62,385 nucleotides of DNA, filler included, from Dimargaris cristalligena (GCA_003614675.1; 8 parts of 8 records of this genome joined end to end with filler, not necessarily neighbours in it), one strand, 5' to 3'. Shown: positions 6,970 to 62,324, counted from the first letter of the whole stretch. Translations and numbers: made by a program. The notes: generated by a model from the letters alone, not told the origin.

Positions 6970-7550
6970 TATCAGACTATCTAATCTACCCTAATCCCAA
7001 CATGTTAGCACCCATCCTTATTAGGCCTTATAGTACCATATTAACCTTCCCAGGGCTACCCCTGGTACTATGGGATCCTCCTTTATCATATAACCCTTCC
7101 CCTTTGGGAATCTGTCTCTTCACACTAATTACTCAAGTGCTGATCTGAAGACTCTTCCAGTTACCATCAGAGCCTTCCAGGTCCTAATGGTCATCTGGCT
7201 GGCCCATTCTACCATATCTTAGTCAGTAGTATTCTTCCCCTGGGGCCTCCCTCTGGAGTTGCCCCTGTATATATATAACCAGGCCCCATTGGGACCAGTT
7301 AGATTCTGGAGCTTATTCTTACCCCCTGGTTTACCCTAATAAACCCTATATATACTTACCACCCTTGTATTGACTAATAAGTGTGTTCACTGCATGTCCT
7401 TTGCCTGTACCTGCATTTTGTAGCCTTTATTAGTTAGTACTATGCCCTCCACCTAATACTAGGACCTGCTTAGCTGAGCCTGAGCCCTGTCTACTGTTAG
7501 AAGCCTATCCTCAGGACTCAATAGACTAAGAGTGGTTAACCTGGGTAACA
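6970..7550 (+). mobile_element. LTR family A copy (solo-like, no TSD seen)
   Basis: Alignable by eye to 16730-17672 and 61719-62303; ends TATCAGAC...GGTAACA; I found no CpG in it. Confidence 0.85.
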
Positions 7551-7770
7551 GTCAGTAAAGACAAAGTAAAGAGAAGCCCACTCAAAGATGATATCAAGTA
7601 GTGATAGTATAATAATGTAATAGTCGATAATCTGTTTTTCAAAAAGAAGCCACACATAAATAGTGGGATAAACATAATTAATTACACAAGGAGGCAAATT
7701 AGAGGGTATATATTATCAACCGTAATGTCACACTTCTTCTCTCCCTCCCAGGGGAACAACAGGTAAGAAC

Positions 7771-7870
7771 NNNNNNNNNNNNNNNNNNNNNNNNNNNNNN
7801 NNNNNNNNNNNNNNTTAATTAATTAANNNNNNNNNNNNNNNNNNNNNNNNNNNNNNNNNNNNNNNNNNNN
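7771..7870. other. Artificial contig spacer (also at 15619-15718, 23459-23558, 31295-31394, 39111-39210, 46893-46992, 54643-54742)
   Basis: N runs flanking TTAATTAATTAA (stops in all six frames); contig lengths decrease monotonically. Confidence 0.99.
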
Positions 7871-10000
7871 ATACTTCCGATAAGTGCGAAAAATAGATAA
7901 AAAATAAAAGTAGGTAAAAAATGTGGTAAGTTCACCACACCTACACTGTGGCATACACAAAAGCTAATAAAAATATTATTCATTCCTTTATACTCACAGA
8001 TTGCATTAAAAAGCCTGCTGTTTTTTCCTTGCTTCTAAAAGTCTGACCTATTTTTCAGTGGTTCCTGGTTATTCCATCTTGTTCCATTTCTTGACCTTTC
8101 TCTACATCCTTTTTCTTTCACCTAGTGGCCCCTAAGGCCCTCGGGATAGCTACATAAGTAACCAGTGAATTCCCGCTTATTTGAAAAATCAATCATCACT
8201 CATTTTATTTCAAACTCAAATTCCATGATTCCTTGAACTCAGTCCTGATTTTTTTATTGATTATTTCTTATTGTTTAATACTACTGTTTCTTATATTTAT
8301 TTTCAATAAAACTCTTGTGTCACTCGTTATATCCTCCCCCCATTCTCCATCTAATCCACTGACCACCCATCCCCTCTGAAAACCCACCATGTCAATGTCC
8401 CATTCTGCCCTAGTCTCATCCCACTCCGTGAACCTCCCATCTTCTGCCACCAGGGAGCTGGCCGCTATGACTTCAGGCCATGTTAATAAGGAGGCCACTG
8501 CCTCCTTGCAAATCCTGAAGGCTATTAATAATAGGCCAGACATCCCAGGTAGTACACAATTCCCAGTTTGGCTACTCATCCCTTCTAACAATGTCTTCAC
8601 ACCAGCTACTTCCCTCGCCCTGTGGATATTTGCATATCACACTCCCTTATATGTATTCTTTATATATGTTAACTAGACATTGTAATGCCTATCAATCAGC
8701 TTACCCATGCAATGTCTCTCTCTGCTCTATTACATCTATTAGTGACATCTTCTTCCAATTTGCAACCACTAAGCACAAGATGGCCAATCTTCTATCTATA
8801 TATCAATTCACTCCCCATATGGCCACTGACTTGCAATTCCCAGACATGTTTGAGGCACAAGGAATGGGAAATGGAGGCCAATGCCAAGAGTGGGCAGAGT
8901 GAATTAATGGGTGAAGGAGGTGTAAATATAGTGTAGAAGTACACTGGGCCTAATTTAACTATGGAGCAACAATTTTAGTAGTGGGTAGCTAGCTATGGAT
9001 GGCATAATAAGGTAGTTATTTTTAATGTTCGTAATATTAAAACTTTTATACCAATCATTTAAATCCATGGAAAGTGAGGTGTTCAGTCATATGGAATATT
9101 ACACCACAAAAAATTGAAGTGAGGGCTACTAGGTTTGAGCCATTGTGTAAATTAGTAAAACATACCCTATTTTCCCAAAAAATACCATGCATAACTGAAA
9201 GCCCATTGGCTCATTAGTGGAGTAAATGTGAGTTAAATATTGTGCTGGTGATTTGAGGTACCTCCATTCTGAGATCAGAGTTGGGGTTGGATATCCCACT
9301 CCCTTCTGGACTGGAAGGTTCACCAGATGTTAGTTTCGAGGGGCCAGTACCTGGATGTAATATGGAGAACTCAGGAAATGTTCCACATAAATTGATCCTA
9401 AACTCCTGTCATCAGAGTTAGGTACTGGAGGAGCTATGGTGGCTACATGCTGAAAATAAGAAAATGAAAAATTTGACTTCTGGTTGAAGTCCTCAGCTGA
9501 TGTTGGGTAAAACACTAAGTAAAGTTAAAATAGATATTTATTCTGAATAATAAAAACTCATCTCAAAGATAACTTATATCATTTTAAGGGCTGGCTGGGA
9601 GACTATAAATAAGAAAATTTGACATTACAGCCTTAAGACTATACTATGCCCTTTTGGACATTGTCCTCAAACAAACTGACAACCATAAAACCATGAAGGG
9701 AGAAAACTGGTTGGGTCCTTAAGCTTAAACAATGTACAAAAAAAAGGAAAAGAAATATGGAAAATGGAAAATGGAAAACAAAAGTGCCTCAGATCCTCTG
9801 GGGCATTCATAGAAATAAGATATAAATAAGGAAAACTTTTACATCACTCCCTTATTCTAATGTGAAGGCTTTTCCCACTGACTTATCTGGAGTCATATAA
9901 CTGACAAAATTAGAAGTGGTTAGTAGGTTAGTTGAAAGTGGAAGTGATTAGGCCCAAACATGGATCAGCAAAATGGAGGTCTTCCAAGTGCTTGCTCAAA
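7871..10000. repeat. CpG-poor, ORF-less region, probably decayed repeat sequence
   Basis: Sparse CpG like the LTR copies, only short non-protein-like ORFs, located at a contig edge. Family not recognised. Confidence 0.3.
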
Positions 10001-11339
10001 GGGTGTAACTGTGAATATTGAATGCGCAGTCATTATGTGGCGAGGGAATACTACTAAGTTGTCTCATGGGAAGGGAAATTCGTCTGAGCTTATGGCAGTA
10101 CATTAAAGGGCTCCGGCCATTTTGGCTGTATAGCACTGTGGCCAAGGACTGTATTATGAATATTTTCGGCAGCTTTGGGATGAGTTGGGGAGATGGGGTA
10201 GGGAGGACACATGTATTTTGGGGGGCGGGGGACTGGATGGAGAAAATACCATGACAAAAAAAGGGGGGCTAAACGGTCTAATATCCATCTGGGACTAGAG
10301 GAAAATGCCCCATCCCCTCCCTTTCCCCATATTAAATGAAACAAAACAGTCGCCTAAGTCGAATGCGCTGAAAACAATGGACTGGAACGGGCCAGAGACA
10401 AAGGAAACCCTTCAGTTATGCCTTGCGGATTGGTATTCAAGCGGGCCCACAAGTCTGCTATTTCTCTGTTACACAGCAACAATAATCGGGTAACTGTCTT
10501 TAGCCCTCCTTCTGCCTCTCCCACCTCCCCGCCTTCCCTATTGTTATTGCGTACGTTAGTGCTAAATAAAACAGCCAAACGGCACCCTTTGGGGGCTGCC
10601 TACCGGCCGACTAGACTTTCGACTGGAGTATCCTATTAACTCGACATACCCTTGCCTCTGTGCTAGTTGTACAGTAGCGGCCCTACCTATAGGTCTTCTC
10701 ATTAACGGGCACTGGCATAGTCATCCAGGATATACCCTGAAGATATATCTGCTATAAATGTTAAAGAAGCTAAAATGCATGGATTTTAACTAACGGGCCT
10801 GTGTTGGCACATTCCACCTAGTAGTGGCTCAAGGGATCCACACCCTCAACGGCTGGTTTAATGGCCAGTCCCGCCTTCCAAAGTATGGCTTTTTCAATTG
10901 GGCAAATTCGAGGCATGGGTTTGATTTGCACAGCCTGGTGTCCTTTGTTCTAACCCATGCTAGGGATAGATAATCAAGGGTGGGTATGAATCTAGTCGAC
11001 GAAAAGGAAGAGATGGATCGACGATTGGCAAAAAGGAACATTGTATTTGGATTGCTTGAACTTTGGGGGGGGGGGTTGGCTTAAAGCGTACAGAGTGGAC
11101 GAGGTAAAGCGCTCTATACTACAATCAAACTCAATGATTTTCCCTTCAAGTTGAAGTCACAAAGCTATACTAGCCTGTATAGATGGGAGGAAGGGGAGGG
11201 AGTTCAGGCGGCCCATTTGGCCCAGATATTGCTTTTGAACCAGATCCCTATAGATCGAATCAATAACGAAACCCACTTTGGGTGAAGGTGAAATGGCCAG
11301 ACTCGCACTTTACTATTCATTAATATCCCGTCCGACGGG

Positions 11340-11346
11340 TATAAAA
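11340..11346 (+). promoter_or_regulatory. Putative TATA box
   Basis: TATAAAA about 150 bp upstream of the ATG at 11494. Confidence 0.45.
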
Positions 11347-11493
11347 GCCCGCCACTTCTCCACCCTTCTGATACTGACTACCTCACATATTCACTTCTAT
11401 ACGACAGCAACTATTCATCAATACTATTGCTTATCATATAGCCTTTTGTTTGCCTACACCTATCCCTTCAACGCCCCAGAGTCACGGTCTACC

Positions 11494-11802
11494 ATGCAAC
11501 TGCCCTCACACACCAAAACCCTTCTTATCGCGGCGGCCACTTTCGGTACAGTAGCCCATGCTCACCCTGCCAGCGGCCATTCCGGTTCTGCTGAGTTGTC
11601 TTCTGCCTCGTCCCCTCTAGTACGCCGTACGGCTCCCAACCCCCCAGCCCTTTTTCGTCGTACTCCTAAAGGGGGAAGAGGAGGAGGTAGAACGGGTGGA
11701 TTTATGGGTGCATCCGGCGGCGGAACTGGTTCTGACGGAAGCTTGTGGGCCAGTTTCAAAAACTGGATTAGCGGTAACAAGGACAAGCCTGCGACTCCCT
11801 AG
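11494..11802 (+). CDS. Small secreted Gly-rich propeptide (102 aa)
   Basis: ACCATG start; signal peptide MQLPSHTKTLLIAAATFGTVAHA; dibasic sites LVRR and LFRR; Gly-rich segment followed by SLWASFKNWI. Confidence 0.75.
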   Translation: MQLPSHTKTLLIAAATFGTVAHAHPASGHSGSAELSSASSPLVRRTAPNPPALFRRTPKGGRGGGRTGGFMGASGGGTGSDGSLWASFKNWISGNKDKPATP

Positions 11803-13067
11803 GATGCTACGCTAATTACTAAACATTCGCTATAACTTGAAACGGACTAGTTGTCTTCGACCCTTTCATTTGTGTTAATTCACATTCCCCCTCGCGGACT
11901 ATCCAATGGCCCAATTTTTTTTGTAACTCTCGACGGTACAGTATTCTCCTAACTGTGCCATTTATATATATTTTAAACCCAATCCATTGGACGGTTGGCT
12001 CAGTAAACATATTCTTATATGTCAATATTTAACATGAGGGTACTAGTGGGGCGCTGGTGTGAAGATTCGCTACTAAATTATGGGCTTAACTTAGGAAAGT
12101 GCAATTAGTATGGTGTTGAATTCTCGGTTACTGAATTAAGCCAGTCTGCTGGCCTTTAATTAAGTCTCTATAATGGCCGCTATACTTAACCACACCCACA
12201 CTAGTAAACAGCCCCTAGAGGTTGCAAGTTGGTTTACATTGGTAATGTTATAAAAGCTATAGTGCTAACTTTACCTTTGTAGCTCCTCACCACCTATTTT
12301 CGTGAATCAGACGGAACACGGTGTTAACAGTCCCATTCGACTACAACTGATAAACCGATATTTAATCCAAATTTATATGCGAGAACTGTGTTGAGTTTGA
12401 AAAAGCGTAAGCCGCTGCCAACGGAAATACGCGTAGGCTATTTATTTATACGCGGGAAGTCTGCTCCTAAGATAGTGGCTAACTAGGCCAAATTGGCCCC
12501 ATCATTAAAAAAATACATCTGCTTCTTTCTAAGGCCCTAAATTAGCTAATCCCTCCATTTGTAGGGCAAGTTAAGGATACCCAAGGTATGCCTTTTGGAT
12601 ATTGGGCCGCTATTTTATAATCTCCCTTTGAACACACTCCATGTATAGTTTCCTAATGGCCTGTGTTAAACCATTGCAGAAATATCACGTGACAAATGTG
12701 GAAGATAGTATGGCTTTTGTAAAGAGTGAAACAGATATTAATTCAGCTCACTTCCTTCTATTCTTCCATTCCACTACTACTTGGCCCTGTTTTAAAAAGA
12801 AAAAAAAATGAATAATATATATCCTGGTAGCCTACCGACCCTACTACTGTTCGTATTACGAGCCATTTGGTATTGGATACCAGTCTCGGCACTTTTCTAA
12901 TTCCTTCTGCCCAATCTACTTATGTTTGAGGAGCTTTCCCCCTAACCGTCTTTTCCCGGCACATTGCCTCGCTATCCATTGTCTTTATATATCGCCTAGC
13001 TTCTCTAAAATATTACACCTCCTCCCCCAGTAGCTCTTATTTATATATATATATTCTCTCGTTCACA

Positions 13068-13616
13068 ATGCTGCGCAAACTCAAGCACCATGAGGCCAAG
13101 CTCCTGCGCAAGGTCGATTTCCTAGAGTACCCCAAGGAAAAGAACGTGGTTGAAATCAAAGCTGTTGCCAAATACGGGCTCAAAAACCGGGAAGAATACC
13201 TCCAGTACCACCAGGTCAGCTGCGAAATCAAACGCCTAGCCCGTAAATTAGCCACCCTCCAGCCTACCGATAGCTTCCGCATCGACCAGGAGAAGCTGCT
13301 CGTCGATAAATTGTTCCATATGGGTATTCTGAGTGACCGGAATACTGTGTCGCAGGTACTGAATGTGAGAGCCGAATCGTTTTGTCGCCGCCGCCTCAAT
13401 GTCATTCTGTGTCGGTTAAATATGGCCGACACCATCAAGGATGCGAACAAGTTCATTCAACATGGGCATGTGCGCGTCGGCGTGGAAACCGCCAACGACC
13501 CGGCCATGCTGATCACCCGGAGTAACGAGGACTTCGTGACTTGGGTGGATAGTTCGGCTATTAAACGCCACGTCATGAAGTACAACAACAAGCTGGACGA
13601 TTACGATCTGCTCTAG
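13068..13616 (+). CDS. IMP3: U3 snoRNP protein Imp3
   Basis: MLRKLKHHEAKLLRKVDFL N-terminus; S4-like domain FCRRRL...FIQHGHVRVG; C-terminal EDFVTWVDSSAIKRHVMKYNNKLDDYDLL. Confidence 0.97.
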   Translation: MLRKLKHHEAKLLRKVDFLEYPKEKNVVEIKAVAKYGLKNREEYLQYHQVSCEIKRLARKLATLQPTDSFRIDQEKLLVDKLFHMGILSDRNTVSQVLNVRAESFCRRRLNVILCRLNMADTIKDANKFIQHGHVRVGVETANDPAMLITRSNEDFVTWVDSSAIKRHVMKYNNKLDDYDLL

Positions 13617-13937
13617 TTAGTTGCCCGTCACCCGGGTTGTTTTTCTATAAATGGCACTTGCTATTTCCACCACATTTACATTGGGAAAAATAAAAATCAA
13701 TAAAAGCGCACCTATTACTTTATGGTCGCTGTGTTTATTAGACCACCAACACCTAACAGGTTTTGACGTTGGCATTAAATATTATAAAAACAATGTAATG
13801 AGACGAAGTGGGTGTGTATTCGGCAAAGGCTACCTTGTCCAGCCCCGATCCGGGAAAGCCCTCAGACCGAGTCAGGGTAGTTAATACAACCCACAGAAGG
13901 GTAAAGTTAACTGGAACTGCTAATGTGATTTTACAAC

Positions 13938-15618
13938 TTAAAGTAATCGATTAACGCTGGCCAAAACCTGGGATGCCAAATCCTCATCCTGGTAATTCCA
14001 CGTAAAGACCAGCTCGGCCACGGTAGTGGGGTGCTCAGCCGACGGTTCGACTTGAATAGCCATGGTGGCAATCACTACCTGTAAGCCGACCGGGTTAAGA
14101 TAAATGGGAACGCCATTCAAATTCTCGCGCAGGATATGGAAAATGATGCGGAGGGCCTTGGTTAAATTCTGGTGTACTTCAGCAACGGCTTCGGGGTCCA
14201 AGCCGAGTGCTTGGAGTTGGGCCGTCACTTCACTATCGGTCGTGGCCGTGGCCGCGACTGATGAGGCGGGCGGTAGGGGAGAATCATCCAGCGATCCGGT
14301 GGCGGTCCACCGGGCCAGCATTTTGTCGAGGGGAAGAGTTTTCCGGGTTTCGAATTCGAGATGGTGGGACCGAATGGAGGCCGTCCCTTCAGTGGGGTCC
14401 ACGAGATAGGGTAGGCCCGGGGTTTGCGGATCGAGAACGAGTAGACCGTCGACGGGGAGATCCACCAACGGCCGGGGACCCCCGCTGCCGGCCCCCCGTT
14501 CGGTGGAGTTCTCCCCCGCTCCGCTGGGCATAACCGAACCCGAACCCGAACCTGAACCCTCCGGGGTGGATGAAGAACCCTCGGCGGCCTGTTTCTCCCG
14601 TCGCCACAACTGTTCATAGAAAGCGGTATCCATGCGCACCGGAATCGCCCGACTCGTTTCGATATCGATGGACTCGCCGTTGGCCGGATCGAAACAGGGG
14701 ATACCGAACTCCTTCATGATTTTCGATTTCAAGTAACCCATTTTGGTCTTCTCCCCGTGCACCAATACCACATTACGGGGTTCACACTGACTGATCAGCT
14801 GCATAATCCCCTTGGCGTCGGCATGGGCACTGAACGACAGATTTTTAACCTGTAAACCCACGTGGATGGAATTGAAATTATCTAAATCAATGACTTTTTG
14901 GCCCGCCAGTACTTTGGCTCCTACGGTCCCGGCGACACAGTAACCCGGCATAATGACCATATTTTTACGATCGTGGGCCCATTTCTTGAACACCTCCAGT
15001 GAGGTACCGATGTGCAGCATCCCGGGGGTGGCAAACAGGACCATGGGTCCGGGTTGGTCGGCGAAGGACCGGTCCCACGGTTTGATGTGTTTAAAATCGA
15101 ACATGTTACGGTGGATGTACGTATCCTTGATTTTCTGGTTGGTCCAGTTGATGAAGAGTCGGTAGTAATTGTTGGCCTTTTCGGTTAATCCAGCCGAGAA
15201 ATAGACGGGCACTTTGAGGCCCATGCGATCCCAGAAAGTCTCAATAAGGATACAGAGTTCCTGCGCGCGACCGAGGGCGAACACGGGGATGATGACTTTA
15301 CCACCCTGCGTCACACAATCGTACACCTTGGTCAAGAAATCGCGTTCGCGGGACCGCTTGGAGTCCCGAACGGTCGTGGCGTACGTCGTTTCGGTCACCA
15401 ATACATCGGGCCGCACTTTATCGATCCAGGCGGACCCCAAATGCCGATCCGGGGTCATGTTATAGTCCCCCGTATACACAATCGATTCCGTCCCCACCCG
15501 CACGTAAAACATGGCGGCCCCGAGCACATGGCCCGCATAATACGCCTTGATTTCAATCTCGTCGTCCAACCAGTGGGTCTCATGCAAATTCACCGTGACC
15601 ACTTTTTTCATACCATCC
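13938..15618 (-). CDS. INTS11: Integrator complex subunit 11 (CPSF3L) beta-CASP nuclease, 5'-truncated
   Basis: [66 protein letters not shown]...[10 protein letters not shown] and SFSAHAD match INTS11 rather than CPSF73/Ysh1. Confidence 0.93.
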
Positions 15619-15718
15619 NNNNNNNNNNNNNNNNNNNNNNNNNNNNNNNNNNNNNNNNNNNNTTAATTAATTAANNNNNNNNNNNNNNNNNNNNNNNNNN
15701 NNNNNNNNNNNNNNNNNN

Positions 15719-15909
15719 AATGTTCTGGGACTTTCCCTCCCTTTCTCTATTATTCATCTATCTTTTCATTTAGGCTTTCCCTTTTGAGTATCAATACTCC
15801 CCCTTACTGCCACCTCTTGGGACAGTAAGTCTATCATCACCTTTTCCTTTTTATCATCTTTTTTTCAAATAAAGTTCAGTTTTTAAGGATTTGATTTCAG
15901 TTCTTTACA
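15719..15909 (-). mobile_element. Family C repeat terminus (probable LTR) interrupting the Gypsy integrase
   Basis: Reverse complement begins TGTAAAGAACTGAAATCAAATCCTT, matching 31234-31294 and 62325-62385. Confidence 0.75.
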
Positions 15910-16717
15910 CTAAGTATCAATATCATTGGCCCATTTAACACTACCTAAAATGGCAACAAGTTTGTCATTATTATAGTTGACTATTTCACCTGTTGGTCCT
16001 TTGCCCACACAGTCCCAAATATTATGGCCCAGGTTGTTATCCAATTTCTTATTGAAGATGTGATTAGTGTGTATGGCTGCCCTCAGATCATCATCTCTGA
16101 CAGCAGTAAACATATCACTGCAAGTATCCTCTGGCAGATGCTATGCCTCTTAGGAGTAAACTACCACATGGTTATCCTATACCACCCCCAGAGTAATGGG
16201 GCCATAGAGCAGCTTAACAGCACTCTCAAACACATAATCACTAAATATTCCTCTAGTGATGACCCTCAATGGGACCAATACCTGGCACTACACTTGTTTG
16301 CCTACTGCATAGCCCATGTCTGCATCATTGCTAATAAACCCTTATATTTGATGTATGGCCATGACCCTCACATGCCCATAGATGTTGTACTGAATACCAA
16401 ACCTGATACCCTGCAAGCCTCCACCAGCTCTGCCTACATTGATAAGTTATACAACAGGCTCAGTGACATCTACCAATGCATCTGCCACAAACTGGGTCCC
16501 AAGCCTACAGACCCCACATAGTACTACATTGGGGATTTCATCCTAGTCCAGGTCCCCCATAGGCCCCTTTCAAAGGCCCTATCTCCATTAAAGGCATCCA
16601 TAGTAGTAACATATACACTATTACCCCCACAGTCCATGATAAATATCTTCAGTAGGAATGTATTTCTGGTGACCAAATCATTCCATTCATTAAAGGCCTC
16701 AAGGATAAGGCTCCAGT
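15910..16717 (+). pseudogene. Degenerate Ty3/Gypsy integrase (rve)
   Basis: SINIIGPF..NGNKFVIIIVDYFT; YGCPQIIISDS; YHPQSNGAIEQLNSTLK; WDQYL...FAY; in-frame stops; followed by a PPT and an LTR. Confidence 0.9.
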
Positions 16718-16729
16718 AGGAGAGGGAGA
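16718..16729 (+). other. Polypurine tract of LTR retrotransposon
   Basis: AGGAGAGGGAGA immediately before the LTR TG at 16730. Confidence 0.8.
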
Positions 16730-17672
16730 TGTCAGACCACCTAATCTGCCTTAATCTGGACACATTAGTGTTGATCCCCATTAGGCCTTATAGTGCCATA
16801 TTACCCTTTCCATGGCCACACCTGGTACTATAAGATCATCCTATATCATATAACCATTCCCCTTCCAGACTCTGCCACTTTATACTAATTACTCAAGGGC
16901 TGATCCAAAGACTCTTCCAGTTACCATTAGAGTTTTCCAGATACTAATGGCCATCCAGTTGGCCTATTTACCTATACCCTGGTCTTAGTAGTATCCTTCC
17001 CCCAGGACCTCCCTCTAGAGTTGTCCCTGTGTATATATAAATAGTCCTAATGGGGCTATTATGATAGGCTAGAAATAAGACCAGGTACCACAAGATGGTC
17101 AGGACTTCAAAGGATGGAAATAGGTTTATTAGACTAGATACCAGAAAGGCAAAACAAAAGAGAAGTTGCAAGCTAAAGAGTAAGCTGTGGGGGAATGGTT
17201 GGGGTTATATCTAAACTCCAGGGGCAGGGGAAGAATGATGATGACTAATAAATGTAAACCGGTAACTAGATAATAAGGGGAATAAAATATAGTAGGATAA
17301 TGGGTATATATTTCTATAATGTTAAATATTAATTTTACCCATTTATTGGTATGGGTTTTTTACTTATATGGCTGGTTATTCTTGTAGTTCGAATTAACCA
17401 GTCATGACAGGGGCCCAGTTAGATTCCTTAGCATATTCTTACCCCTCTGGTTTACCCCTAATAAGCCCTATATATACTCATCCCCCCCCATACTGACTAG
17501 TAAGTGTGCCTGCTGCCTATCCCTTACCTCTACCTGTACTTGGTCTTTATGGGTTAGTACCATACCTATACCTGACACTAGCAGCCTGCTTAGCCAAGTC
17601 TAAGCCTTGCCTACTACTAAAAGCCTATCCTCAGGACTCTTGATGAACTAAGAGTGGTTAACCTAAGTGACA
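16730..17672 (+). mobile_element. 3' LTR, family A (contains a nested insertion)
   Basis: TGTCAGACC...AAGTGACA termini; homologous to the other family A copies apart from an insert at 17057-17409. Confidence 0.9.
17057..17409. mobile_element. Nested solo LTR, family B (353 bp)
   Basis: Absent from the other family A copies; flanked by 5-bp TSD GGGGC (17052-17056 and 17410-17414); ends TATTATGA...GTCATGACA (mutated TGTCATGA inverted terminus). Confidence 0.8.
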
Positions 17673-20600
17673 TACTTATTAAATAACATAAAGCTCTAAG
17701 ATATTTAATTCAACCATTACATGCAAAAGTTGGATACCTTGATGTTTATAATAAAATGTACTTTAAAGCCCACCCTGCTACTGAGTAATGCTATAAAAGG
17801 AGCCATACAGGATATATTTGTTAATAAGACCAATGTACTGGGATAATCCGCAGAGCTATGGCCCAGTGTTATTATTCACTGGCTGTCCAGAAAGGAATAG
17901 CAGCCAGTAGGGCGATGCAAGCAAGATATTTCTCTGATAAGCCCTTTGAGCTAGCTGAGATGCAAATACATACTGGGGAGTGGTGCTCCTTGGAATTAAT
18001 AACTTATTTCTCAGCCCCATTTACTTATAGCCCTCATAAGCTTGCACCTTTTAAGTACCTTGCACTGCGGCATCTTTATACAGGTGGAGTATCTCCTTAT
18101 TAATAATAGGCCCCACCTGATGGTCATTCCGATCTAATTAGTTCCTGCCCAGTGAATCTATATGCAGCACTTGAGTCGCTGGACATAACCAAAGTTCAAA
18201 AGGTGACTATTAGTTCTTTTCTTACTGGGCGCCAAAACGTCCATAAAGTGGAGGACTCTACTTTGTTCAATAACCGCGTCTGTGTCCGGCTCCGCACTGG
18301 CGAACGTAGACCTGGCCTTACTGAGTCACCCCTAGTTTCTGTATACAATAAATTATTACAGGGTGGTTCAGTCAATCTTTATAGCTAAACATCCGCTTGA
18401 TGAAGTGGGTACTCTCAGGTCGAGAATTTCTAGACAATTTTCATTATATTCAAAGACTTTCCTGGCTGTGTTGATTTTCTCTCTTGGTAAACAGCTTAAG
18501 ATCCTGTCTAATAAATAGGACCGCATAATAAAGGGTTCCCTGCGGTCAAAAATGGGGAAGTTCTTCCCAGGCCAGGGCCGGGTCTTGGGGGGAGGGGGTG
18601 TAGGACAACTGTCCCCACACCCTTTTTGTTTAGCATTAGTGACTCTCACGCCCTCCCTACTTTTCTACGAGGGTGGTTTCCAAGCAAAAAAAATGGGGCG
18701 TATAGTTTGGCTTAGTTTTGGGGGTAGGGGGTTGCGGAATGAGTAGGAAAGGGAAGTCCTTTAATAATACCACTATACTATCAGCTAATAGGAAACTGGG
18801 TATTGAAACAATGTACTTGCATAGTCGCCACTTTATCCCCATTTAAGGCGGGTCAGGCTGGACACCACTTGACCGCGGAAACCCGAAGGGTGATATCGGC
18901 ATTGCCTCCCCGAGGGGCAGTCGGCCCTGGGCTAATGACCGTGAAGGGCTGGTCAATCATTAATCCTTTTTTTACCACCCGGGTGCAGGGCATCGCCACC
19001 CACGCATAGTGGTTTGACAAGTTAATTAAAACTGGGCGGACCACATAATGAAGTGCTTTGCACTGGGAAAAAATAATCCAAACGCGAATAGCCTGGAGGG
19101 GGGGCGGACCCAAGCAAAAAGAGAACGTCTTAATACACTATTGCCCAGGCTCCCGTCTACATCTCCTCCCCTCACCAAGATTTCCCGCACTCCGTGTACC
19201 CCTGCTTCTCGAATCGAGCGTCCTCTTTAGATTTTCCCAAGCCCACTGCTTTGGGAACGGCCATGGGTACTTGCTGGTGGGTTGACCCGGTTAACACAGT
19301 CGATTTTACGTGTCGAGATATATCTGTTATTGTGTGTCGATAGTAATATTTACCTCCGTTCAAATTGGTGAACCCCCCTCCACTACTTGAGGCGGCGATT
19401 GTTCAGGGAAGAATCCGCCCATTCGAGCTGGACAACCGGATAATCCAATTTTATTGCTTCCCCATAGTCTGATTAAATAACCGACCCCTCAGTAGTTACC
19501 GAACTTCTAAACTTCCACGCAGTCAATAAGTATCCTTTTATAGTAATGCTTGCAAACATGAAGAAAACACCCATTTCGCCATTAGTGTGATAAGGCGCCT
19601 GAAATTAAGCGCCCTCGGCCCCGCTGTTAAAGCCAACCATTAAATGGGGACTATCTAATGTTTTCTTGGCCACTGGGCATAGAGGGGAGGGGAGAAAGTA
19701 GAACACAGCATCGTTTATCTAGTTCAAACTGAGAACCCCAGTAAAACCGTGGAATCCCGCCTTCGGCATTCCCCTGTCGACATGCACGTTTGTTTGGGGT
19801 AGATTTCATTTTCATGCTTCCGAACGGACGCCCGGTCGCTCATTTTTAATTATACGGCCACCCATGGTAAGCGGTCTTGAATAGTTGTCACCCTACCCAT
19901 ATGGCTAAAAGTCACGTCACCGACCATCTGCGAGAAAAAGTGGGGGCCGATATGATGAATGCCTACATATTGACACCCTGCTTTGGATCCACATTATTCG
20001 GCGCGGTCCCACGGAAGAACCCGCTACCCAGTCGGGCTGGCGTTTGTTGGCGCCAGGTGCATGTAATGGCAAGCCACCCAACCTAAAAGATGGGAGAGAT
20101 TGTGTACAATGGTGAGAAAACCTTCCAATCTCCCCCCTCAGTGTTGGGAGGGAAATAGGAAGTGGGGTGGTAGTTTGTTTCGCGATACTTAGACATCTAT
20201 GTGTAAGAGGGTCCCAGTACCAGTTAGTTTTTTAGTTCAATAAATAAAATAAAATGCCTGTGACACTGACTTCAGCATTCCCCCGGCTACCAGTCACTTG
20301 ATACACGGCGGACCATCGTCGTAAAAGAAATTACCCACACATTTTGGGCGTAAGACGGCCCGCAAGATAAATGTGGAAACTAGTGGTCCGCCAAACTACC
20401 AAATATCATTCTTAGCGCCTGTTTAGTATTATACCAACCTATATAGGTCGAGATATGCCCCTGGATAAGTAAGCGGAGTGCTAACCGGCTGCCACGACAA
20501 CTAATACAATGGCAGTGTGAAGTAGTGACATTTCTTCAGTTTTTTACAATATAATTTATGTATTAGTCCAGCCGGAGGCACCCTAGGGCTTGGATAAACA

Positions 20601-31172: not shown

Positions 31173-31233
31173 TGTTAGACCATCTAATCTACCTTAATTT
31201 AGTTGGCTTAAACATCTAACCCTACTAGGCCTT
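31173..31233 (+). mobile_element. 5' fragment of LTR family A, interrupted by family C
   Basis: TGTTAGACCATCTAATCTACCTTAAT...AGGCCTT followed directly by TGTAAAG. Confidence 0.8.
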
Positions 31234-40102: not shown

Positions 40103-40479
40103 GGGTATTACAGGAGTTTGTTGCAGCCAAAACCGGGGAATGGGATGAGAGCTAAGTGGGAGCAGCGGGATGGACTACTACTAAGTAAAATGGTACAAGA
40201 GTTTGAGAGAGACAAGGAAGGTAGGTGGGCGTGACGGCTAAAGGAGGGTGAAATAGGCGAAAGAGAAGGAAGTGCGTGCGGATGGGCACTTACTTGCCAG
40301 AGCTACCTTCAAACAGTAGGCGACGGACGGGTTCTAAAGCCAGTCACATTACCATCCCCCGCAATCATTTTCCTCACCCATTCACCCACCTGGAATAGTA
40401 ATATACCCTAGTTCCGCGTGATTGGTTGGATTCCCAATAACCCAATATGGATGGGCGAATAAGAGAGAGGTTCCCTACA

Positions 40480-40623
40480 ATATGAGAGAAGTTCATTCAG
40501 GCGGTATAATGAAAAATCCATTGGATGAGGCCAAGATTACTGGTTAAAAGCCATTCTCACATATATTCAACCATACATGTATTATGTAAAACCTTATACA
40601 GCTGGTTTGAATTTCACCCATAT
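40480..40623 (+). mobile_element. MITE-like element, copy 1
   Basis: ATATGAGAGAAGTTCA...TGAATTTCACCCATAT imperfect TIRs; internal similarity to 46338-46468 and 59919-60062. Confidence 0.75.

Positions 40624-41088: not shown

Positions 41089-41090
<2 letters not shown>

Positions 41091-41120
<30 letters not shown>
41091..41120. repeat. (AT)15 microsatellite
   Basis: Read directly from the sequence. Confidence 0.95.
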
Positions 41121-41122
<2 letters not shown>

Positions 41123-46337: not shown

Positions 46338-46468
46338 ATATGGGTGAAGTTCGGCCCAGCTGTATAAGGTTTTAAATGATAATGTATGGGAGATTTATTT
46401 TTAACCAGTCATATTTGCTTCATCCAACGGATTTTTCGTTATACAACTCGGTTGAACCTCTCCCATAT
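46338..46468 (-). mobile_element. MITE-like element, copy 2
   Basis: ATATGGGTGAAGTTCGGCC...GGTTGAACCTCTCCCATAT; reverse complement aligns with copies 1 and 3. Confidence 0.8.

Positions 46469-48774: not shown

Positions 48775-48778
<4 letters not shown>

Positions 48779-48805
<27 letters not shown>
48779..48805. repeat. (AG)n microsatellite between RBG1 and the PX gene
   Basis: Read directly from the sequence. Confidence 0.9.
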
Positions 48806-48811
<6 letters not shown>

Positions 48812-48822
48812 AGTGCGGTCGA

Positions 48823-51800
48823 TTACGTAACAACATACGACATATGTGACCCGCGCCTAGACGATGAGATGGCATGCGGCACCAACTCGGCCAGCTGCTC
48901 GTCTAGATTCGTGCGCAGCTGTCGTACGAATGGATTGACCATGCGCGGCAGGATCGTCAGCTGTGGTGCCGGAATGGGCGGCTCGGTAATGGCACCGGCC
49001 TGTCGCGTGGACAATGTTGGTGCATGACCATTGCCCGCCATCTGCTGCTGCTGCTCCTGCTGTTGCAGTTGCCACGTTAGCATGGCATCGATCTCGTGGT
49101 CGCCCTCGTCGCCCAGCACATCCTCGACATCGGCACTAAGGCCTAATTGATCGAGAATCTCCTGGATGTCCTGTTCGCTCCAGTCGTTGACATTCGTTTG
49201 GAGGCGTGCTCGCAACTTGCGTCGATGTCGCTCCTTCACCCGCGTGCGATAGTCGGCCAAGCGACGCAGATCCTCCTTAAGCGCCGCGCGATCCTCGTCG
49301 GTGGTGGCAGCCTCCGCGGCAATCGCCTGCAAATCGATGGCACCACTGCCCGCCCGCAGGAACTGCATGATGGTCTCGGCCCAGTTAAGCACATTATCGA
49401 ATAGGCCACGACGATCGCGTGCATAGAGTCGATGCAGGAATTGGTACATATTGCCCCTATAGCGATTGACGAGTGCCCTGAATGGCTCGAGTGGATTACG
49501 GCCATCGTTATCTACCGTGCAGAACACATCATCAATACAAATAGAGAGAGATGTGCGTGTGCGCGTGCATGTGATGATGACTTACGCATGCGCCATGCAT
49601 CCATGCCCTCTACGGTGCGGATGAGATCGTCAATAAAGGCGGCAATGTCCATGATGTAGTCGCCAATGTTCGCCGCCTTGTACACTTCGGCCAGTGGGCC
49701 ATAGACCACGGCGATGATGTCCTTAAGCAGATCGCTCGTGCTCCCCTCGAATATAATGCTGAGCAAGGTCTCCTTATCGTGCTTCTTCAGGTAGAGCGTG
49801 AGCAGGTTGCGCAGCTTGTGCAGCATCGTGCGGTGTGGCTGTGCACTCGGCCGGTCGGTGGGCCAGATGCGTTCGAGCTGGGTGGCATGCAGCTGCGGTG
49901 CAATGTTGTTATCGTGCAGTAGGCGCATAAGCAGCTCATCGTCCGACATTTCTACGCATCGTCCATAAGCATATAGTGCATGGCCATGGGGCTGCGCGCG
50001 CACACTCACCAGCATCGTCCGTGTATTGAAGCTCGTGGTGGCAGATGTACTTGTTGATCTTGTGGCACACGGCCAGATCGCCAATCTCCCGCTCGAGCTT
50101 CTCGATGTCGCTCTCCAGCTCCCGTAGGCTCTCGCCGATATTGGTGGCGATGATCCTGCCGCCATAGCATGCGAATGCCACGTGAGTCGAGCACATTCGA
50201 TCACATTGCAATGTAATGCAACTTACCGCTGCAGTACACTGCGCTGGCCAAATGGCCGCGCCAGGAACAAATCGGTCACGCCCTTGGCCATGCGGGCTGG
50301 ATTCGATATGCGAAGCACCGCGCGCAGGGCACGATAGGGTATCATGCCATTGGTGCGCTTCAGCGATGCCAGCTTGGCCGGCGAGTCGTCCGAGCTGTAG
50401 AAGTTGACGTAGAGCGACGTCGCAAAGCTAGACAATGCACCGCCCATGTGCGTCAGCCACAAGCAATGACGACGACGATGGCGCATGCCCAAGCACTTAC
50501 TTGACGCATAGATAGTTGAACGTGGCCTGGCAGTAGGGCGGCAGCGCATCGATATCATCAACCTCCTTCACCGTGTCCACGAGTCGCTGTAGGCCGCCTA
50601 CCAATGCACAGATGGTCAGCGACATCCATGCAACTGGGCGAGCCGCTCACCGCTCGATAGAACCTCCTTGCGAAGACTCGCCATGTCGGCCTGGTACTGC
50701 TTGGTGAGGCGCTCCGACTCCTCCTGCGCCTGCACCGACTCTTCGTGGAGCTGTCGCTCGCGCGCGGCCCGCCCTTCCGCCTCGAGCAAGGCTTCTCCCT
50801 GCAGATCGATGGGCTGGTCGGTGAGGAACGCGTGGAGGATGGGCGAGTGCGCGACGGGCTCGACCGCGATGAGTCGGCGCAGATGGGCGCGCATGAGCAG
50901 GCGGTCCTTCTCGCGATAGTAGACATCGTGCTGCGACGCACTCTGCTGCGTCTTGGGCGGCGGGAAGGGCAGCTCGAGTGCCGGCATTGCTCGGCGTAGC
51001 TGTGCCGCGCATCAGTCAGCGATGGGCCATGCCCTAATCGATATGCTGCTTACCTGCTTGTGTAGGCGGCGCAGATCATGGAAACGCCGCGCCACATAAA
51101 AGTGCGCGCCATCATCGAAGGTGACCGACAGGACGAATTCCTAATCCATCACCACCATCGAGTTCAGCTTACGTGCCTGCTTCGCTCGACGGTGGGGCCA
51201 CTTACCGCATGCGTTGAATCGCGCAGCTTGCCCGATCTGTGCACCGGGCGCACCGTAACCACATTGAGGTTGATGCCATTGACGCCCTTCGGTGGGTGTG
51301 CGCTCGATGCGGCAGGACGAGCCTCGTCGGCACTGGATGGGCCATCGGCCGGAGGATGCTCGCCCTCGTCGTGCAAATCGACCGAGTGTAGCGAATGGCG
51401 ATCAGCACCGCCATGCTCATGCTCATGCTCATTCTGCTCCGTTGGCTGTGTGGGATCGCTGAGGAGGGCAGTCGATGGCGCCTCGGCTAGCTTCGTGCCC
51501 GAGTAGAAGAAGAGCGTGAGCAGCCGGTTGCCGCGCTGCATCATCTGCTGGCGCTTGTGCTTCTCGCCGGCCTCGCGACTACTGCCGATGCCATGTGCGG
51601 CGAGCTGGTCGAGGAACCGCTGGACACGCGGCCAGAACGATGGGCCTGCATCGCGGAATAGCGGGAAGCTCAGCACGTAGCGCAGGTAGATGTAGCGCAG
51701 CAGCGGGATTGGATCGAAGGTCGATGGACTGACGCGCACGCCCACTGCGCCCGCCGGCAACCGACGCAGATATTGCAGCGACGGATTGGCCGCCAGGTAA

Positions 51801-52195
51801 GCAAGCTCCTGGGTGATTTCGCGATTGACTAGCTCGCGGCTCACAAGGCGCTGCTGCTGCTGATCAAGCAGTGCTTCGTGCGTGCTGGTATATACAGCAC
51901 TGCTGCTGCCATCGTTGTCGTTGTTGGTGGTGGTGGCATGGACGGCCAGTCCAGCCATGGACTCGAGTGCTAGTGCTTCCGCATTACTGCTGCTGTTTGT
52001 AGCTTGTTCTTCCGTGGCATCCACATTATCGTTGTCGTTGTTGTTGTCCTCCTCGTCGCTATACAGGACAAACTCATAATTCTGTCCCTCGGAACTAGGC
52101 GCGCCACCACTCGTATTGACCGACAGGCGATCACTGGCATCTACGAATGCAGGCAGTGGCGACGGCGTCCTCGCGGCTGTCCGTTCATTAGACAT
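48823..52195 (-). CDS. PX-domain protein of the Ypr097w/Lec1 type (PX-associated, PX and DUF3818-like regions)
   Basis: PLLRYIYLRYVLSFPLF; PX-like YVARRFHDLRRL...LPFPPPK; YREKDRLLMRAHLR; IPYRALRAVLRISNP..MAKGVTDLFLARPFGQRSVLQR; YGPLAEVYKAANI. Multi-exon. Confidence 0.8.
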
Positions 52196-54642: not shown

Positions 54643-54742
54643 NNNNNNNNNNNNNNNNNNNNNNNNNNNNNNNNNNNNNNNNNNNNTTAATTAATTAANN
54701 NNNNNNNNNNNNNNNNNNNNNNNNNNNNNNNNNNNNNNNNNN

Positions 54743-58234: not shown

Positions 58235-59354
58235 TCAAGCATAGTGTGCCGGATGACAGGACTTTTTCATGTGTCTTTTGAGATTACTTTCAGAAGCAAA
58301 TGGATTCTTGCAATTATCGCAGGTATAAGACTTTTCACCATTGTGTTCGTATATTGCGCATGAAGTCACGGTTACATCTAAAGTCTGCGGTGCATTCCGT
58401 GCACTTAAAAGGCCTCTCTCCAGTGTGTGTTGATATATGTCTATTGAGAGATTTTTTCTCTGTAAATTCAGCGAAGCAATCCGTGTAACCCGTGCACTTA
58501 AAAGGCCTCTCCCCGGTGTGTGTTGATATATGTCTATTGAGAGAACTTTTCTGCGCAAATTCAGCAGGGCAGTCCTTGTAATCTGTGTAATTCCTGCACT
58601 TGTAAGGCCTCTCCCCAGTGTGTCCTCGTATATGGTCATTGAGAGAACTTTGATTTGTAAATGATGCGGTGCAATCCGTGTCGTTCGCGTAATCCCTGTA
58701 ACCCGTGCACTGAAAAGGCCTTTCCCCAGTGTGTGTTCGTATATGGGTATTAAGAGAACTTTTCTGCGTAAATGAAGCAGTGCAATCCGTGTCATTCACG
58801 TTATCCCTGTAACCCGTGCACTGAAAAGGCCTCTCCCCAGTGTGTGTTCGTATATGATTATTTAGACCACCAATCCACTGAAACTGCTTAGTACACTTCT
58901 GACAGGGAAAAAACTTCTCCCGGGTGTGAGTTCGCTTATGAGCCTTAAGCTGACTGGGATATACATAGGAAATATGACATTCCTCGCAAACGTGAGGATT
59001 CTTGTTTAAAGGTGATTCTGAATTGGTCTTGCGCCGCTTTTGGGTCGTGATTGAGCTTTCACCTTGATCGCCAGCGGACGGGTTTCTCTTGTTGGGCAAT
59101 ACTGAATGACTGGCATACCAAAAGGGCTCCATGGGTTCGGGTTGTGGGTGGTGGTGGCTGTCAGGATCTAATTCTGCCGTTTCCCTTTCCTGGCGCTCGA
59201 GTGGATGGCTTACAAATGCTGATGTACTTGCAACGGCGGGATCCCTGTCTCTCCCATTTTCGGTGCCGTCCGCATCATTGATGTCACTCTCTGGGTGGGG
59301 AAGGTATACATTTGGTGTAGGTTGATAGTCGGGGTAGTCTGCGCCAAGGAACAT
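58235..59354 (-). CDS. Tandem C2H2 zinc-finger protein; last finger out of frame
   Basis: Repeated HTGERPF linkers; 7 fingers in the main ORF (the 7th lacks its His residues); an 8th finger (GEKSYTCDNC...LKRHMKKSCH) is in a shifted frame; NLS-like KRRK. Confidence 0.85.
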
Positions 59355-59918
59355 TTTGATTTGATGGGACCCAATGGCGTCGTTGTTGTCTATGGTCTGT
59401 TGTGTACTGTTAAATGCACCAATATTTTGATGATTAGGTCTGTTTCATCGCTCCACTGATCAAGGCCCGCACAAGCTCACATCTACAGGCAAATGGCTGT
59501 GAGCGGATTTTGTAAGCCTGTTACGGCCCAACCAGCCAATGGTGACACTAGTGTGGCAACCAATGAGGCAAGAGGATTTACCCACCGCTGGTTATCAATA
59601 CCAAGTGCTCCCGTCCCCCCCTCTTGCTCTGGGAGGCTCTTCCTGGTTTTATATACCCTATTCAATAAATCACCCTATGTCTATATTGCCCCTTTACCAT
59701 TTCGATATAGTGGCCCATAACAAGCTAAATAAAATAGTTCTTCCGAAAGCCCAACTCGACTATGGACAAAAAAAGAGGCATCCATAGGGAAAAGGGGGAC
59801 TCTACTTAAGTAACACAAGCGTAATTATGAAATGATAAATATGGGTATTAAGAAGTGAGGAAATAATTGAAGTTCAGTGTATTTCAAAGGGGGTGCTTTG
59901 AATAGTTGGGACATAACA

Positions 59919-60062
59919 ATATGGGAGAAGCTCATCCAGACTGTATAGCGAAAAATTCGTTGGATAAGGTAAATATTACTGGTCCAAAATGAGTATCCCA
60001 CCTATTATCCTATACACGTATCATTTAAACCCTTTTACAGCTGGGCCGAATTTCACCCATAT
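59919..60062 (+). mobile_element. MITE-like element, copy 3
   Basis: ATATGGGAGAAGCTCA...CCGAATTTCACCCATAT. Confidence 0.8.
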
Positions 60063-60349
60063 TGTACATTGATGGGAACTAGAAAAATGGATTCATTATT
60101 GTTGATCGTATGTATGTGAATAGCTAAAGAAAAGAACAAATATGAATTAAAGGTCAAATGAACAGCAAGACTACTAGACCATAGTGTATGGGGCTAGTAT
60201 ATAGCCATACATAATCGACTACCAAGAAAGACAGGTCATTAATAGTGCAATGTAGCAAAAATCAGGAAGTGCAAATAAAATGACATTATCTTAACCAGTG
60301 TCCCTATAATGCGAAACAGTATGAATGCCACTTAGACATTTGAACAGGG

Positions 60350-61540
60350 GCTGTAGTTTTCATGTACTTCATCATTCATCCAGGAACCTTTGAATATAAT
60401 CCACCCAGTGTACACAACACCACATTATACAATTCCTCATAATAAGTCGGGAATAATAGCATTGTCTTATTGGACATGCACGGTATCCAGTACCCCAGTT
60501 TAGGGACAAAGGGCCTAATGCCGGATTTCCAGTATTCATAGTGGCTATTCATTGTTTATGCACCAAAATACCTTCACTCCAACCTATGCCAAATATACCA
60601 TCCTAGTTGAAACAGCAAGGTGGATGAGCTTTGAATTAGTTCATTGGGATATGTGCTTCACTTTGAAACTTGGGAGAGTAATTTCATTAATGAAAATGTC
60701 CAACAATTGGCACACTTAGGTTGAAGCCGTAGTCCCAGCTAAAGATAGGCTGGGCTACAATGTTCGGGGGCTTCAGGTATCATGTTTTAATTTGTATAGT
60801 TTTTGCTCTTTCCAATTTACAGCAATGCACCTATCCATTAGATGTGGATAGTCTCTCCTTGTACTCTCCAAATATCATGCATGGCAAAAACAATAACACC
60901 TTTCGATACACTATCACCCAGTTACACACAAGTGTAGTCACCAGAAACTTTTCAATTCTCTTGACCGCCTATAAATACTATGGGCTATCCCGAGTTAATT
61001 TTAATCATCATCAACACTGATTTCAACTTCCAACCTTTGCCTTTCCTGCACTCAACTCCCCTCACACAATTTGGTTTTTAACCTAACTTTACCACCACCC
61101 TATCATTTAAGCCAACTTTCGCAATGTCAATGACCACTGCATATAACAACATTCCCTAAGGAAAAATTATCGGCCACCCAGGAACCCTTAGCCATGACTA
61201 CCCGGACTATGATCCCAAGGCCAATTAAACCAAGCTCCCAGCATGATGTTTTCCCACACATTTAGAAATAAGTATTGTGTATCCCTTGGACTTATCCCCA
61301 ATAATCAGAACTCTCAGTGTTTGTGGTGGGCCCAAAGTGGTCTTAGAATATCTGGAAAGGATCCCAAGCTTTCTAAGCTTGACACACTGCAGCCTAACTT
61401 TGGGTCATCAGTAATGGCATATTAATTCTTGCAAAATCAGAAACTACAAATCATACCTAATTATATGCTCTTACCTCACCACCGGATTTTTCATGACTCA
61501 GATTTGGCCATACTACATATTATCCTACAGGCCTAACACT
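60350..61540 (+). pseudogene. Possible decayed non-LTR (LINE-like) ORF2 3' region
   Basis: Broken frames with QGG../FELVHWDMCFTLKLGRVISLM..W, reminiscent of the post-RT GGLG region. Weak evidence. Confidence 0.3.
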
Positions 61541-61549
61541 GACCATCTC

Positions 61550-61649
61550 ATATAGGCAATATCATTGCCCAGTATAACCAATCACAATCAATTACTATAT
61601 ATGTATCATTCAAAACCTTATACAGCTGCACTGAATTCCACCTCTATAT
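61550..61649 (+). mobile_element. Degenerate MITE-like copy
   Basis: 3' half TATCATTCAAAACCTTATACAGCTGCACTGAATTCCACC matches the MITE family. Confidence 0.55.
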
Positions 61650-61718
61650 TTTTATTTTACAACCCTATTATGTCAATAGAGGGCAAAAAAAAAATATCCT
61701 TAAATTGATGCTATCTCT

Positions 61719-62303
61719 TATCAGACCATCTAATTTACCTTAATCTAGCTAGCTTAAATGTCTAACCATATTAGGCCTTATAGCACTATATTAACCTCCC
61801 CATGGTTACCTCCAGTACCATAGGATCAACATTTATCATATAACCCTTCCCCTTCCAGACTCTGCTTATTTATACTAATTACTCAGGTGTTAATTTATTA
61901 GACTTTTCTAGTTACTACCAAAGTCTTCCAGATACTAGCAACTATCTAGTTGGCCTATTCATCTATCCCATAGACTTAGTAGTCTCCTTTCCTTAAGATC
62001 TCCCTCTAGAGTTGTCCCCATATATATATAACTAGGCCCCATTGGGACTAGTAAGATTCCCTGGCTTATTCCTACCCCTCAGTTTACCCCCAATAAATTC
62101 TATATATACTTACTCCCCCTATATTGACTAGTAAGTGTACTTACTACACATCCCTTACATATACCTATTATAGCCTTTATTAGTTAGTACCATACTCTAT
62201 ACCTAACACTACTAACCTACTTAGATGAGCCTAAACCCTACCTACTATTAGAAGCCTATTCTTAGGACTCTTGATAGACTAAGAGTAGTTAACTTAGGTA
62301 ATA
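61719..62303 (+). mobile_element. Solo LTR, family A (585 bp)
   Basis: 5-bp TSD TCTCT (61714-61718 and 62304-62308); termini mutated to TA...TA. Confidence 0.9.
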
Positions 62304-62324
62304 TCTCTATTGTTTATTCATTCT

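Follow-up and report, generated by a model that had tools for sequence, protein, structure and literature searches.

The window analysed in this study is a stretch of 62,385 nt from the fungus Dimargaris cristalligena, made up of eight draft contigs (C1 to C8) that follow one another in falling order of size, from 7,770 down to 7,643 bp. The initial annotation had treated positions 6970 to 62303 as one locus whose repeats had been hypermutated in a manner resembling repeat-induced point mutation (RIP). As a single locus this span does not hold, since seven N spacers split the window into its contigs, and because the spacers join separate draft contigs, the word "neighbouring", like any distance, is valid within one contig only. 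The repeats in question are retrotransposon long terminal repeats (LTRs), above all those of one family, here called family A. Two layers of cytosine decay probably lie on these same repeats, a decay of CpG dinucleotides and a deamination of the repeat body that prefers CpA. Family A is represented by three full LTRs, each named after its contig, and by two fragments, and one of the full copies is interrupted by an LTR of another family:

6970..7550, + strand: family A LTR copy C1, 581 bp, 0 CpG, TATCAG...GTAACA, without a matching target-site duplication
16730..17672, + strand: family A LTR copy C3, which closes a truncated element as its 3' LTR, TGTCAG...GTGACA, interrupted by the nested LTR
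17057..17409, + strand: nested solo LTR of another family, 353 bp, TATTATGA...TCATGACA, 2 CpG
31173..31233, + strand: family A LTR fragment, the first ~60 nt, starting TGTTAG, at the end of contig C4
38786..38857, + strand: family A LTR fragment, the first ~72 nt, starting TATCAG, on contig C5
61719..62303, + strand: family A solo LTR copy C8, 585 bp, GC content 0.364, 0 CpG

An nhmmer search of the window for more family A copies returned only these five. All eight terminal hexamers described earlier were found in place, namely TGTCAG at 16730, TATCAG at 6970, 38786 and 61719, and TGTTAG at 31173 on the 5' side, with GTGACA ending at 17672, GTAACA at 7550 and GTAATA at 62303 on the 3' side; both ends of the nested LTR likewise read as had been claimed. 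The nested LTR sits between 5-bp duplications GGGGC (17052-17056 and 17410-17414), and contigs from public sequencing runs bridge its empty site. LTR C8, which is flanked by 5-bp duplications TCTCT, contains 99 TpA and only 38 CpA+TpG and is the copy most mutated from C to T. In public runs of the same organism the family A LTR reaches a summed contig depth of 20,000-180,000, against 14-172 on adjoining single-copy DNA, and in one run (X1) 2,235 contigs match the stretch examined, 109 of them at least 99% alike. In another run (X6), from a differently labelled organism (B), 22% of the words sampled from contig C3 recur, as do copies of both LTR families that have diverged (80-95% alike), one such copy lying on a 6,088-bp contig; changes might be polarised with this organism as outgroup.

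The three full family A LTRs (581, 585 and 585 bp) contain no CpG, and they lie in or beside four blocks of the window from which CpG has largely disappeared:

6798..7770: block 1, CpG-poor, 2 CpG against 38.3 expected; LTR C1 with 172 bp upstream and the remainder of the contig
7871..10024: block 2, CpG-poor, 10 CpG against 77.9 expected
15719..17848: block 3, CpG-poor, 2 CpG against 84.2 expected; reaches 176 bp past the LTR end
61484..62385: block 4, CpG-free, 0 CpG against 22.7 expected; starts 235 bp upstream of LTR C8

Together the blocks hold 14 CpG against 223 expected in 6,159 bp, and their CpG-free runs span 414-1,666 bp, whereas other stretches of Dimargaris type have a CpG observed/expected (o/e) ratio of 0.69-0.89. 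Thinning of CpG begins before block 4, at about 60000 (o/e 0.36). The earlier observation of CpG-free family A LTRs beside CpG-richer DNA is thus borne out, with 0 CpG against this background, but the restriction of the loss to repeats is not, as the loss runs 172, 176 and 235 bp past the LTR ends; copy number was checked on the flank of LTR C3 only, which is at single-copy depth from 17711. None of the eight stop-to-stop open reading frames (ORFs) in and beside 7871-10024 matched a protein family. In the CpG-free blocks other than LTRs, CpA+TpG is enriched (index 1.39 in block 2 and 1.52 in another, against 1.05-1.15 elsewhere), which is what simple CpG decay predicts. At 12 of 109 pyrimidine-purine sites one LTR copy reads TG and another CA, and a site that reads CCAG or CTAG/ATAG in the window copies is still CCGG in some run contigs. 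Hence the hallmarks of CpG decay of the DNMT1/Masc2 type are present: CpG nearly gone from repeats, sharp borders, and mixed TG and CA.

This pattern is the known footprint of CpG-methylated repeats, an ordinary kind of footprint in a little-studied lineage. In the mechanism we favour for this layer, the LTRs, the adjoining retroelement remnant and flanks of 170-235 bp would have lost essentially every CpG to TpG or CpA through 5-methylcytosine (5mC) laid down at CpG in silenced repeats and its subsequent deamination, and the likeliest maintainer would be a system of the DNMT1/UHRF1 type, as in relatives among the Kickxellales. A separate repeat family of about 150 bp, with 75-80% identity among its members, occurs at 40477-40623, 59916-60062, 46338-46468 (reverse) and 61594-61649; some of its copies keep CpG (e.g., AACGAAAAATCCGTTGG), and in another the corresponding positions read TG and CA; CpG erasure therefore does not extend to every repeat.

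The second layer emerges from comparison of the three full family A copies, which were aligned with the nested LTR removed. The alignment has 591 columns, of which 388 are invariant, 142 show transitions only, 36 are two-state transversions, 10 have three states and 15 are gapped. Over the 576 ungapped columns the pairwise counts of transitions and transversions are 94/29, 106/29 and 96/34; differences between LTR copies are thus mostly transitions, as RIP would require. Pyrimidine columns standing before an invariant base, with the strands pooled, were sorted by the number of copies that read T:

before A: 10 columns with no T, 19 with one, 26 with two, 84 with three
before C: 36 columns with no T, 11 with one, 4 with two, 25 with three
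before T: 52 columns with no T, 12 with one, 8 with two, 35 with three

The ratio of C,C,C to C,C,T columns is 10:19 before A and 88:23 before C or T (Fisher p=1.6e-5), and that of T,T,T to C,T,T shows no difference (p=0.35). Across the three full copies, CpA/TpG sites have undergone C-to-T change about 4-10 times as often as CpC/CpT (CpY) sites. A star-tree fit gives, per lineage, 0.34 for CpA/TpG to TpA against 0.078 for CpY, with reverse rates of 0.052 and 0.053. When lineages are fitted separately, the chance of CpA/TpG becoming TpA is 0.26 in LTR C1, 0.25 in LTR C3 and 0.66 in LTR C8, and equal rates are rejected (p=1.5e-6), as is a model that holds CpA at the CpY rates while leaving the reverse rate free (p=2e-7). 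The targets therefore rank per lineage in the order CpG (about 31 ancestral sites estimated, none surviving), CpA/TpG (0.25-0.66) and CpY (0.05-0.11). Of the mixed CpG and CpA targeting proposed initially, a CpA excess beyond CpG decay is real in the three copies, while CpG is the dominant target.

Since fast CpG decay might mimic a CpA excess, TG and CA both leading to TA, null simulations were made in which fast CpG decay was combined with uniform C-to-T change outside CpG (three settings of 150 runs each). The observed Fisher value was reached in 0/450 of these runs and in 46/100 runs with a CpA rate of 0.3. On reasoning alone, a TA at a former CpG needs a non-CpG event, because double deamination of the dyad yields TG and CA daughters. 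The termini carry a polarity of their own, as LTR biology fixes the ancestral ends as 5' TG and 3' CA. In family A, four of the eight obligatory ends are mutated (P=0.007), and five of ten when the nested LTR is included (P=0.003), at p=0.11.

Polarisation of singletons by majority rule among LTRs C1, C3 and C8 gives the following counts:

C-to-T at CpA (43 sites): 5 in C1, 3 in C3, 18 in C8
C-to-T at CpC (82 sites): 6 in C1, 4 in C3, 8 in C8
C-to-T at CpT (104 sites): 4 in C1, 6 in C3, 12 in C8
Transversions: 9 in C1, 14 in C3, 13 in C8
T-to-C outside TpA: 10 in C1, 7 in C3, 8 in C8
"T-to-C at TpA": 20 in C1, 18 in C3, 5 in C8

LTR C8 shows a six-fold preference for CpA (18/43 against 20/186 at CpY, p=7e-6) and a surplus specific to C-to-T (p=0.014), and under this strict rule it is the only copy in which the CpA excess is significant. 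The difference in CpA load between copies is unmatched by transversions or by T-to-C changes. A simply greater age of LTR C8 was rejected as an explanation, its transversions and T-to-C changes not being raised. TA is common to C8 and C1 at 18 sites, to C8 and C3 at 20, and to C1 and C3 against C8 at 5; this sharing, four times as frequent with C8 as between the other two, fits no single tree and suggests that the same sites were hit in parallel. In successive 117-bp windows inside LTR C8, CA+TG falls to 11, 9, 7, 7 and 4, against 14-22 in ten windows upstream, and TpA rises from 5-15 upstream to 16-24 inside. The CA+TG deficit does not pass the repeat border, so the CpA layer of C8 ends there, whereas the CpG loss continues. 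Within this sample the CpA layer is genuine, and the hypermutated solo LTR C8 accounts for most of it.

Upstream of LTR C3 lie a coding remnant and a piece of another repeat:

15719..15909, + strand: piece of a far more abundant repeat, which truncates the integrase
15910..16729, + strand: remnant of integrase and the 3' end of pol, 0 CpG, in the frame of 15721

The remnant is severed on its 5' side at 15909/15910 and closed by a polypurine tract, AGGAGAGGGAGA, that adjoins LTR C3. With the termini TGTCAG...GTGACA of C3, the duplications TCTCT of C8 and GGGGC of the nested LTR, this tract and the integrase, the hallmarks of an LTR retrotransposon are present, and the gene order, with integrase beside the 3' LTR as in Ty3/gypsy, suggests that superfamily. 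The integrase core was matched by phmmer with a best E value of 7.9e-48 (30,461 hits at E<=0.001), and the Pfam domain rve gave E=6e-5, below its cut-off. A word-index search of longer proteins found no close intact relative, and none of the 150 matches listed by a HMMER search exceeded 40% identity, which rules out polarising the integrase changes codon by codon. The remnant has three in-frame stops in 272 codons, and its first catalytic D reads N. The motifs concerned are LSINIIGPF (ATC AAT at 15916-15921) and AIEQLNS (GAG CAG CTT AAC AGC), and the ancestral residues, which we take from the family consensus to be D, R and G, make three changes of the G-to-A type, as had been stated. They do not exemplify CpA targeting, however, as all three fall within a former CpG (ATC|GAT to ATC AAT, CGG to CAG, and AAC|GGC to AAC AGC). 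The stop count is compatible with 0.1-0.25 changes per site and not with heavy RIP.

The repeat at 15719-15909 has a summed depth of 150,000-886,000, against 14-172 for single-copy DNA. Contigs C4 (31233-31294) and C8 (62324-62385) share an identical terminal 62 nt, to which the last 60 nt of the repeat correspond in reverse; since its sequence ends both of them, the assembly evidently breaks at this repeat.

What produced the second layer can be stated conditionally. It would consist of an extra load within the LTR, specific to C-to-T, preferring the change of CpA/TpG to TpA at about 5-10 times the CpY rate and varying in dose from copy to copy, which would amount to a deamination of cytosines aimed at the repeat itself. 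Either a methylation reaching beyond CpG or a deaminating activity resembling RIP may be the cause, and the CpA layer fits a RIP-like mutator as well as a decay of non-CpG methylation within the bounds of the repeat body.

RIP of the Neurospora type prefers CpA over CpG, CpT and CpC, involves RID and acts before meiosis. In the window, CpG and not CpA is the first target, and runs tests, which have low power here, detected no strand-polarised C-to-T/G-to-A tracts (P=0.28 for C1, 0.29 for C3 and 0.44 for C8); repeated rounds of mutation would blur such tracts. The composite RIP index is 0.41, 0.04, 1.45 and 1.17 in the LTR pieces and negative in the other CpG-free blocks (-0.51 in block 2, -0.64 and -0.42), and because several ordinary 1-kb windows are also positive, composition indices alone mislead here. 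The second layer is not canonical Neurospora-type RIP, and we do not file it as RIP, because the target ranking and the polarised tracts of that type fail. What stands of the RIP-like interpretation first offered is the C-to-T excess at CpA and the erasure of CpG; the dominance of CpG as a target, the lack of polarised tracts and the negative indices weaken it.

A true RIP-like defence of a broader kind, that is, a homology-sensing and probably sexual-phase cytosine mutator acting on CpG and CpA in a zygomycete-grade fungus outside Dikarya, is in our judgement unlikely, although it is the alternative that fares best. It would account for a C-to-T-specific load that varies between copies without a matching difference in transversions, for a CA+TG deficit in LTR C8 that does not cross the LTR border as the CpG loss does, for the stronger effect apparent in the very high-copy LTR than in the low-copy integrase region, and for the positive composite indices of the LTRs; the pairwise identity of the copies, 77-79%, lies close to the limit below which RIP no longer recognises repeats. 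Index signals have also been published, with caveats, for another order of Zoopagomycota, according to passages of PMC11105155. Against it stand the precedence of CpG over CpA, the missing strand polarity and the negative composites of other CpG-free repeat blocks. The repeats are, moreover, hugely abundant in run X1, and since very many run contigs match them, they have multiplied despite any such defence. Two surveyed Kickxellales are without a listed DNMT4/RID (PMC10538959, in its supplement), and a kingdom-wide screen places RIP-like signatures in ascomycetes only, as passages of PMC12543289 have it.

That CpG-methylation decay and neutral drift alone are at work, the CpA excess arising from errors of polarity with three copies, from subfamilies or gene conversion in a family of thousands of copies, or from a TA-rich ancestral LTR, we regard as quite improbable, but a number of observations favour it and weigh against a second layer. 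The comparison draws on three full copies only, and the 38 sites that read CA or TG against TA are polarised by a model. With C1 and C3 taken together under the strict majority rule, CpA stands at 8/86 and CpY at 20/372 (p=0.21). C3 has TG at 16981 and 17542 against TA in nearly all other contigs of the family, which shows that some changes do run from TA to TG; and when C3-specific C-to-T changes are polarised by the family majority, 1/6 falls at CpA, in a small sample (40 of 539 difference rows) that is biased against hypermutable sites. Assuming many ancestral CpGs makes the test somewhat anticonservative, with null false positives of 3-25% at p<=0.01, and in a fuller model separate rates for former CpG and ancestral CpA are not identifiable with three copies, a degenerate solution fitting equally well. 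The integrase remnant, finally, is high in CA+TG and keeps 13 CAR and 3 TGG codons against its 3 stops in 272 codons. Decay of CpG alone is nevertheless opposed by the 450 null simulations, none of which reached the observed value, by the rejection of CpY rates at CpA even with TA free to revert to CA or TG, by a sharing of TA (18/20/5) that fits no single tree, and by the mutation of four of eight ends whose polarity is known.

Editing of the cDNA by an APOBEC-like cytidine deaminase during reverse transcription, with the mutations inherited at insertion, would explain both the exact end of the C8 deficit at the LTR border and the copy-varying dose, but it is very improbable and was rejected, since both strands are hit (C-to-T/G-to-A 23/16 in C8, 14/4 in C1 and 9/5 in C3, without runs) where one-strand editing should give one type only.

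The decay of CpG together with a CpA-preferring deamination of the repeat body thus remains our preferred reading, and it applies to a window composed as follows:

1-7770: contig C1
7771..7870: first of seven contig spacers, N44-TTAATTAATTAA-N44
7871-15618: contig C2
15719-23458: contig C3
23559-31294: contig C4
31395-39110: contig C5
39211-46892: contig C6
46993-54642: contig C7
54743-62385: contig C8
15619, 23459, 31295, 39111, 46893 and 54643: starts of the other spacers

An AIF-like ORF on contig C1 is 96% identical to BJ085DRAFT_10803, a partial protein of Dimargaris cristalligena, with other Dimargaritales next at 47-55%. These matches identify the source as an early-diverging fungus of the Kickxellomycotina, as had been supposed, and not as a member of the Pezizomycotina, in which RIP would have been ordinary. 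Contig C7 differs in make-up (GC 0.57, CpG o/e 1.06, TpA/ApT 0.61), and its ORF for a PX-associated protein (minus strand, 51164-52195) matches SYNPS1DRAFT_26882 of Syncephalis pseudoplumigaleata with 100% identity. The contig seems to come from another fungus and to have entered the Dimargaris assembly, possibly through cross-contamination, and on account of its make-up and its Syncephalis-identical protein it should be left out of any set of neighbouring genes. The start of contig C1 (window positions 1-60) resembles the 3' part of a tRNA gene severed by the contig end; ARAGORN reported no tRNA gene over the whole window. Tandem units of 93-111 bp at 58385-58920 are coding and not satellite, because they encode the repeated C2H2 zinc fingers of the ORF at 58335-59354 (minus strand). 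An exact look-up of three window ORFs gave no record.

These results bear on where repeat-directed mutation is found among fungi. RIP-like mutation of repeats is held to be restricted to ascomycetes (in passages of PMC12543289), and decay with a CpG signature is known mainly from basidiomycetes and Tuber. In the window a fungus of the Kickxellomycotina has erased CpG from repeats completely and within sharp borders, which would imply a working silencing by 5mC in a group usually described as rich in 6-methyladenine (6mA) and poor in 5mC. Should the CpA component turn out to follow repeat borders throughout the genome, the origin of RIP-type defence would move outside Dikarya or count as convergent. 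Still bolder, and in our view doubtful, is the idea that a repeat-delimited, CpA-preferring cytosine mutator operates beside CpG methylation as a RIP-like defence of the Zoopagomycota that has no RID-type enzyme and arose independently or before Dikarya. On the practical side, composition indices alone misjudge this genome, and its draft assembly holds at least one contig of another fungus.

A search of titles and abstracts found no literature on repeat mutation in Dimargaris or the Kickxellomycotina, and the comparison here is with systems described elsewhere. RIP in Neurospora crassa and other Pezizomycotina is alike in its C-to-T/G-to-A changes in repeats, its conversion of CpA to TpA, its copy-varying dose and a positive composite index in LTRs; it is unlike what is seen here in that CpG outranks CpA, polarised tracts are lacking, many copies persist and the CpG loss extends into flanks. 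For the Entomophthorales, which also belong to the Zoopagomycota, RIP-index signals have been published with caveats, covering 24.2% of windows in Zoophthora radicans (in passages of PMC11105155); that work used composition indices only, whereas the present comparison goes site by site through homologous copies. The kingdom-wide k-mer screen found RIP-like signatures enriched only in ascomycetes, and the name Dimargaris is absent from its main text (PMC12543289). Among other early-diverging fungi, 5mC is confined to repeats in Linderina pennispora, a member of the Kickxellales and so of the same subphylum, and in Phycomyces, according to a passage of PMC11258239 citing Mondo et al. 2017; in those fungi methylation was measured directly, whereas what is seen here is the mutational footprint. 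In supplement file 1 of PMC10538959, Coemansia reversa and Linderina pennispora have entries for DNMT1 and UHRF1, with DNMT4/RID and DNMT5 given as "ND".

Two further parallels come from transposable elements (TEs) in Dikarya. In Microbotryum, Melampsora and Puccinia, TE decay with a CpG signature has been attributed to methylation of the Masc2/DNMT1 type, and in the passages concerned these basidiomycetes are reported without a CpA-preferring component (Amselem et al. 2015, PMC4352252). Microbotryum and the rusts are alike in a TE divergence dominated by transitions, in the change of CpG to TpG or CpA and in that no RID-type enzyme is expected; they differ in that Dimargaris belongs to the Kickxellomycotina, shows total erasure in sharp blocks and has a second, CpA-preferring component. 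The TEs of Tuber melanosporum, for which RID and Dim-2 genes are listed, carry a predominant CpG and a secondary CpA signature, according to the same source. The ranking of targets there, CpG and then CpA, is the same as in the window, but Tuber is a member of the Pezizomycotina, whereas Dimargaris stands outside Dikarya.

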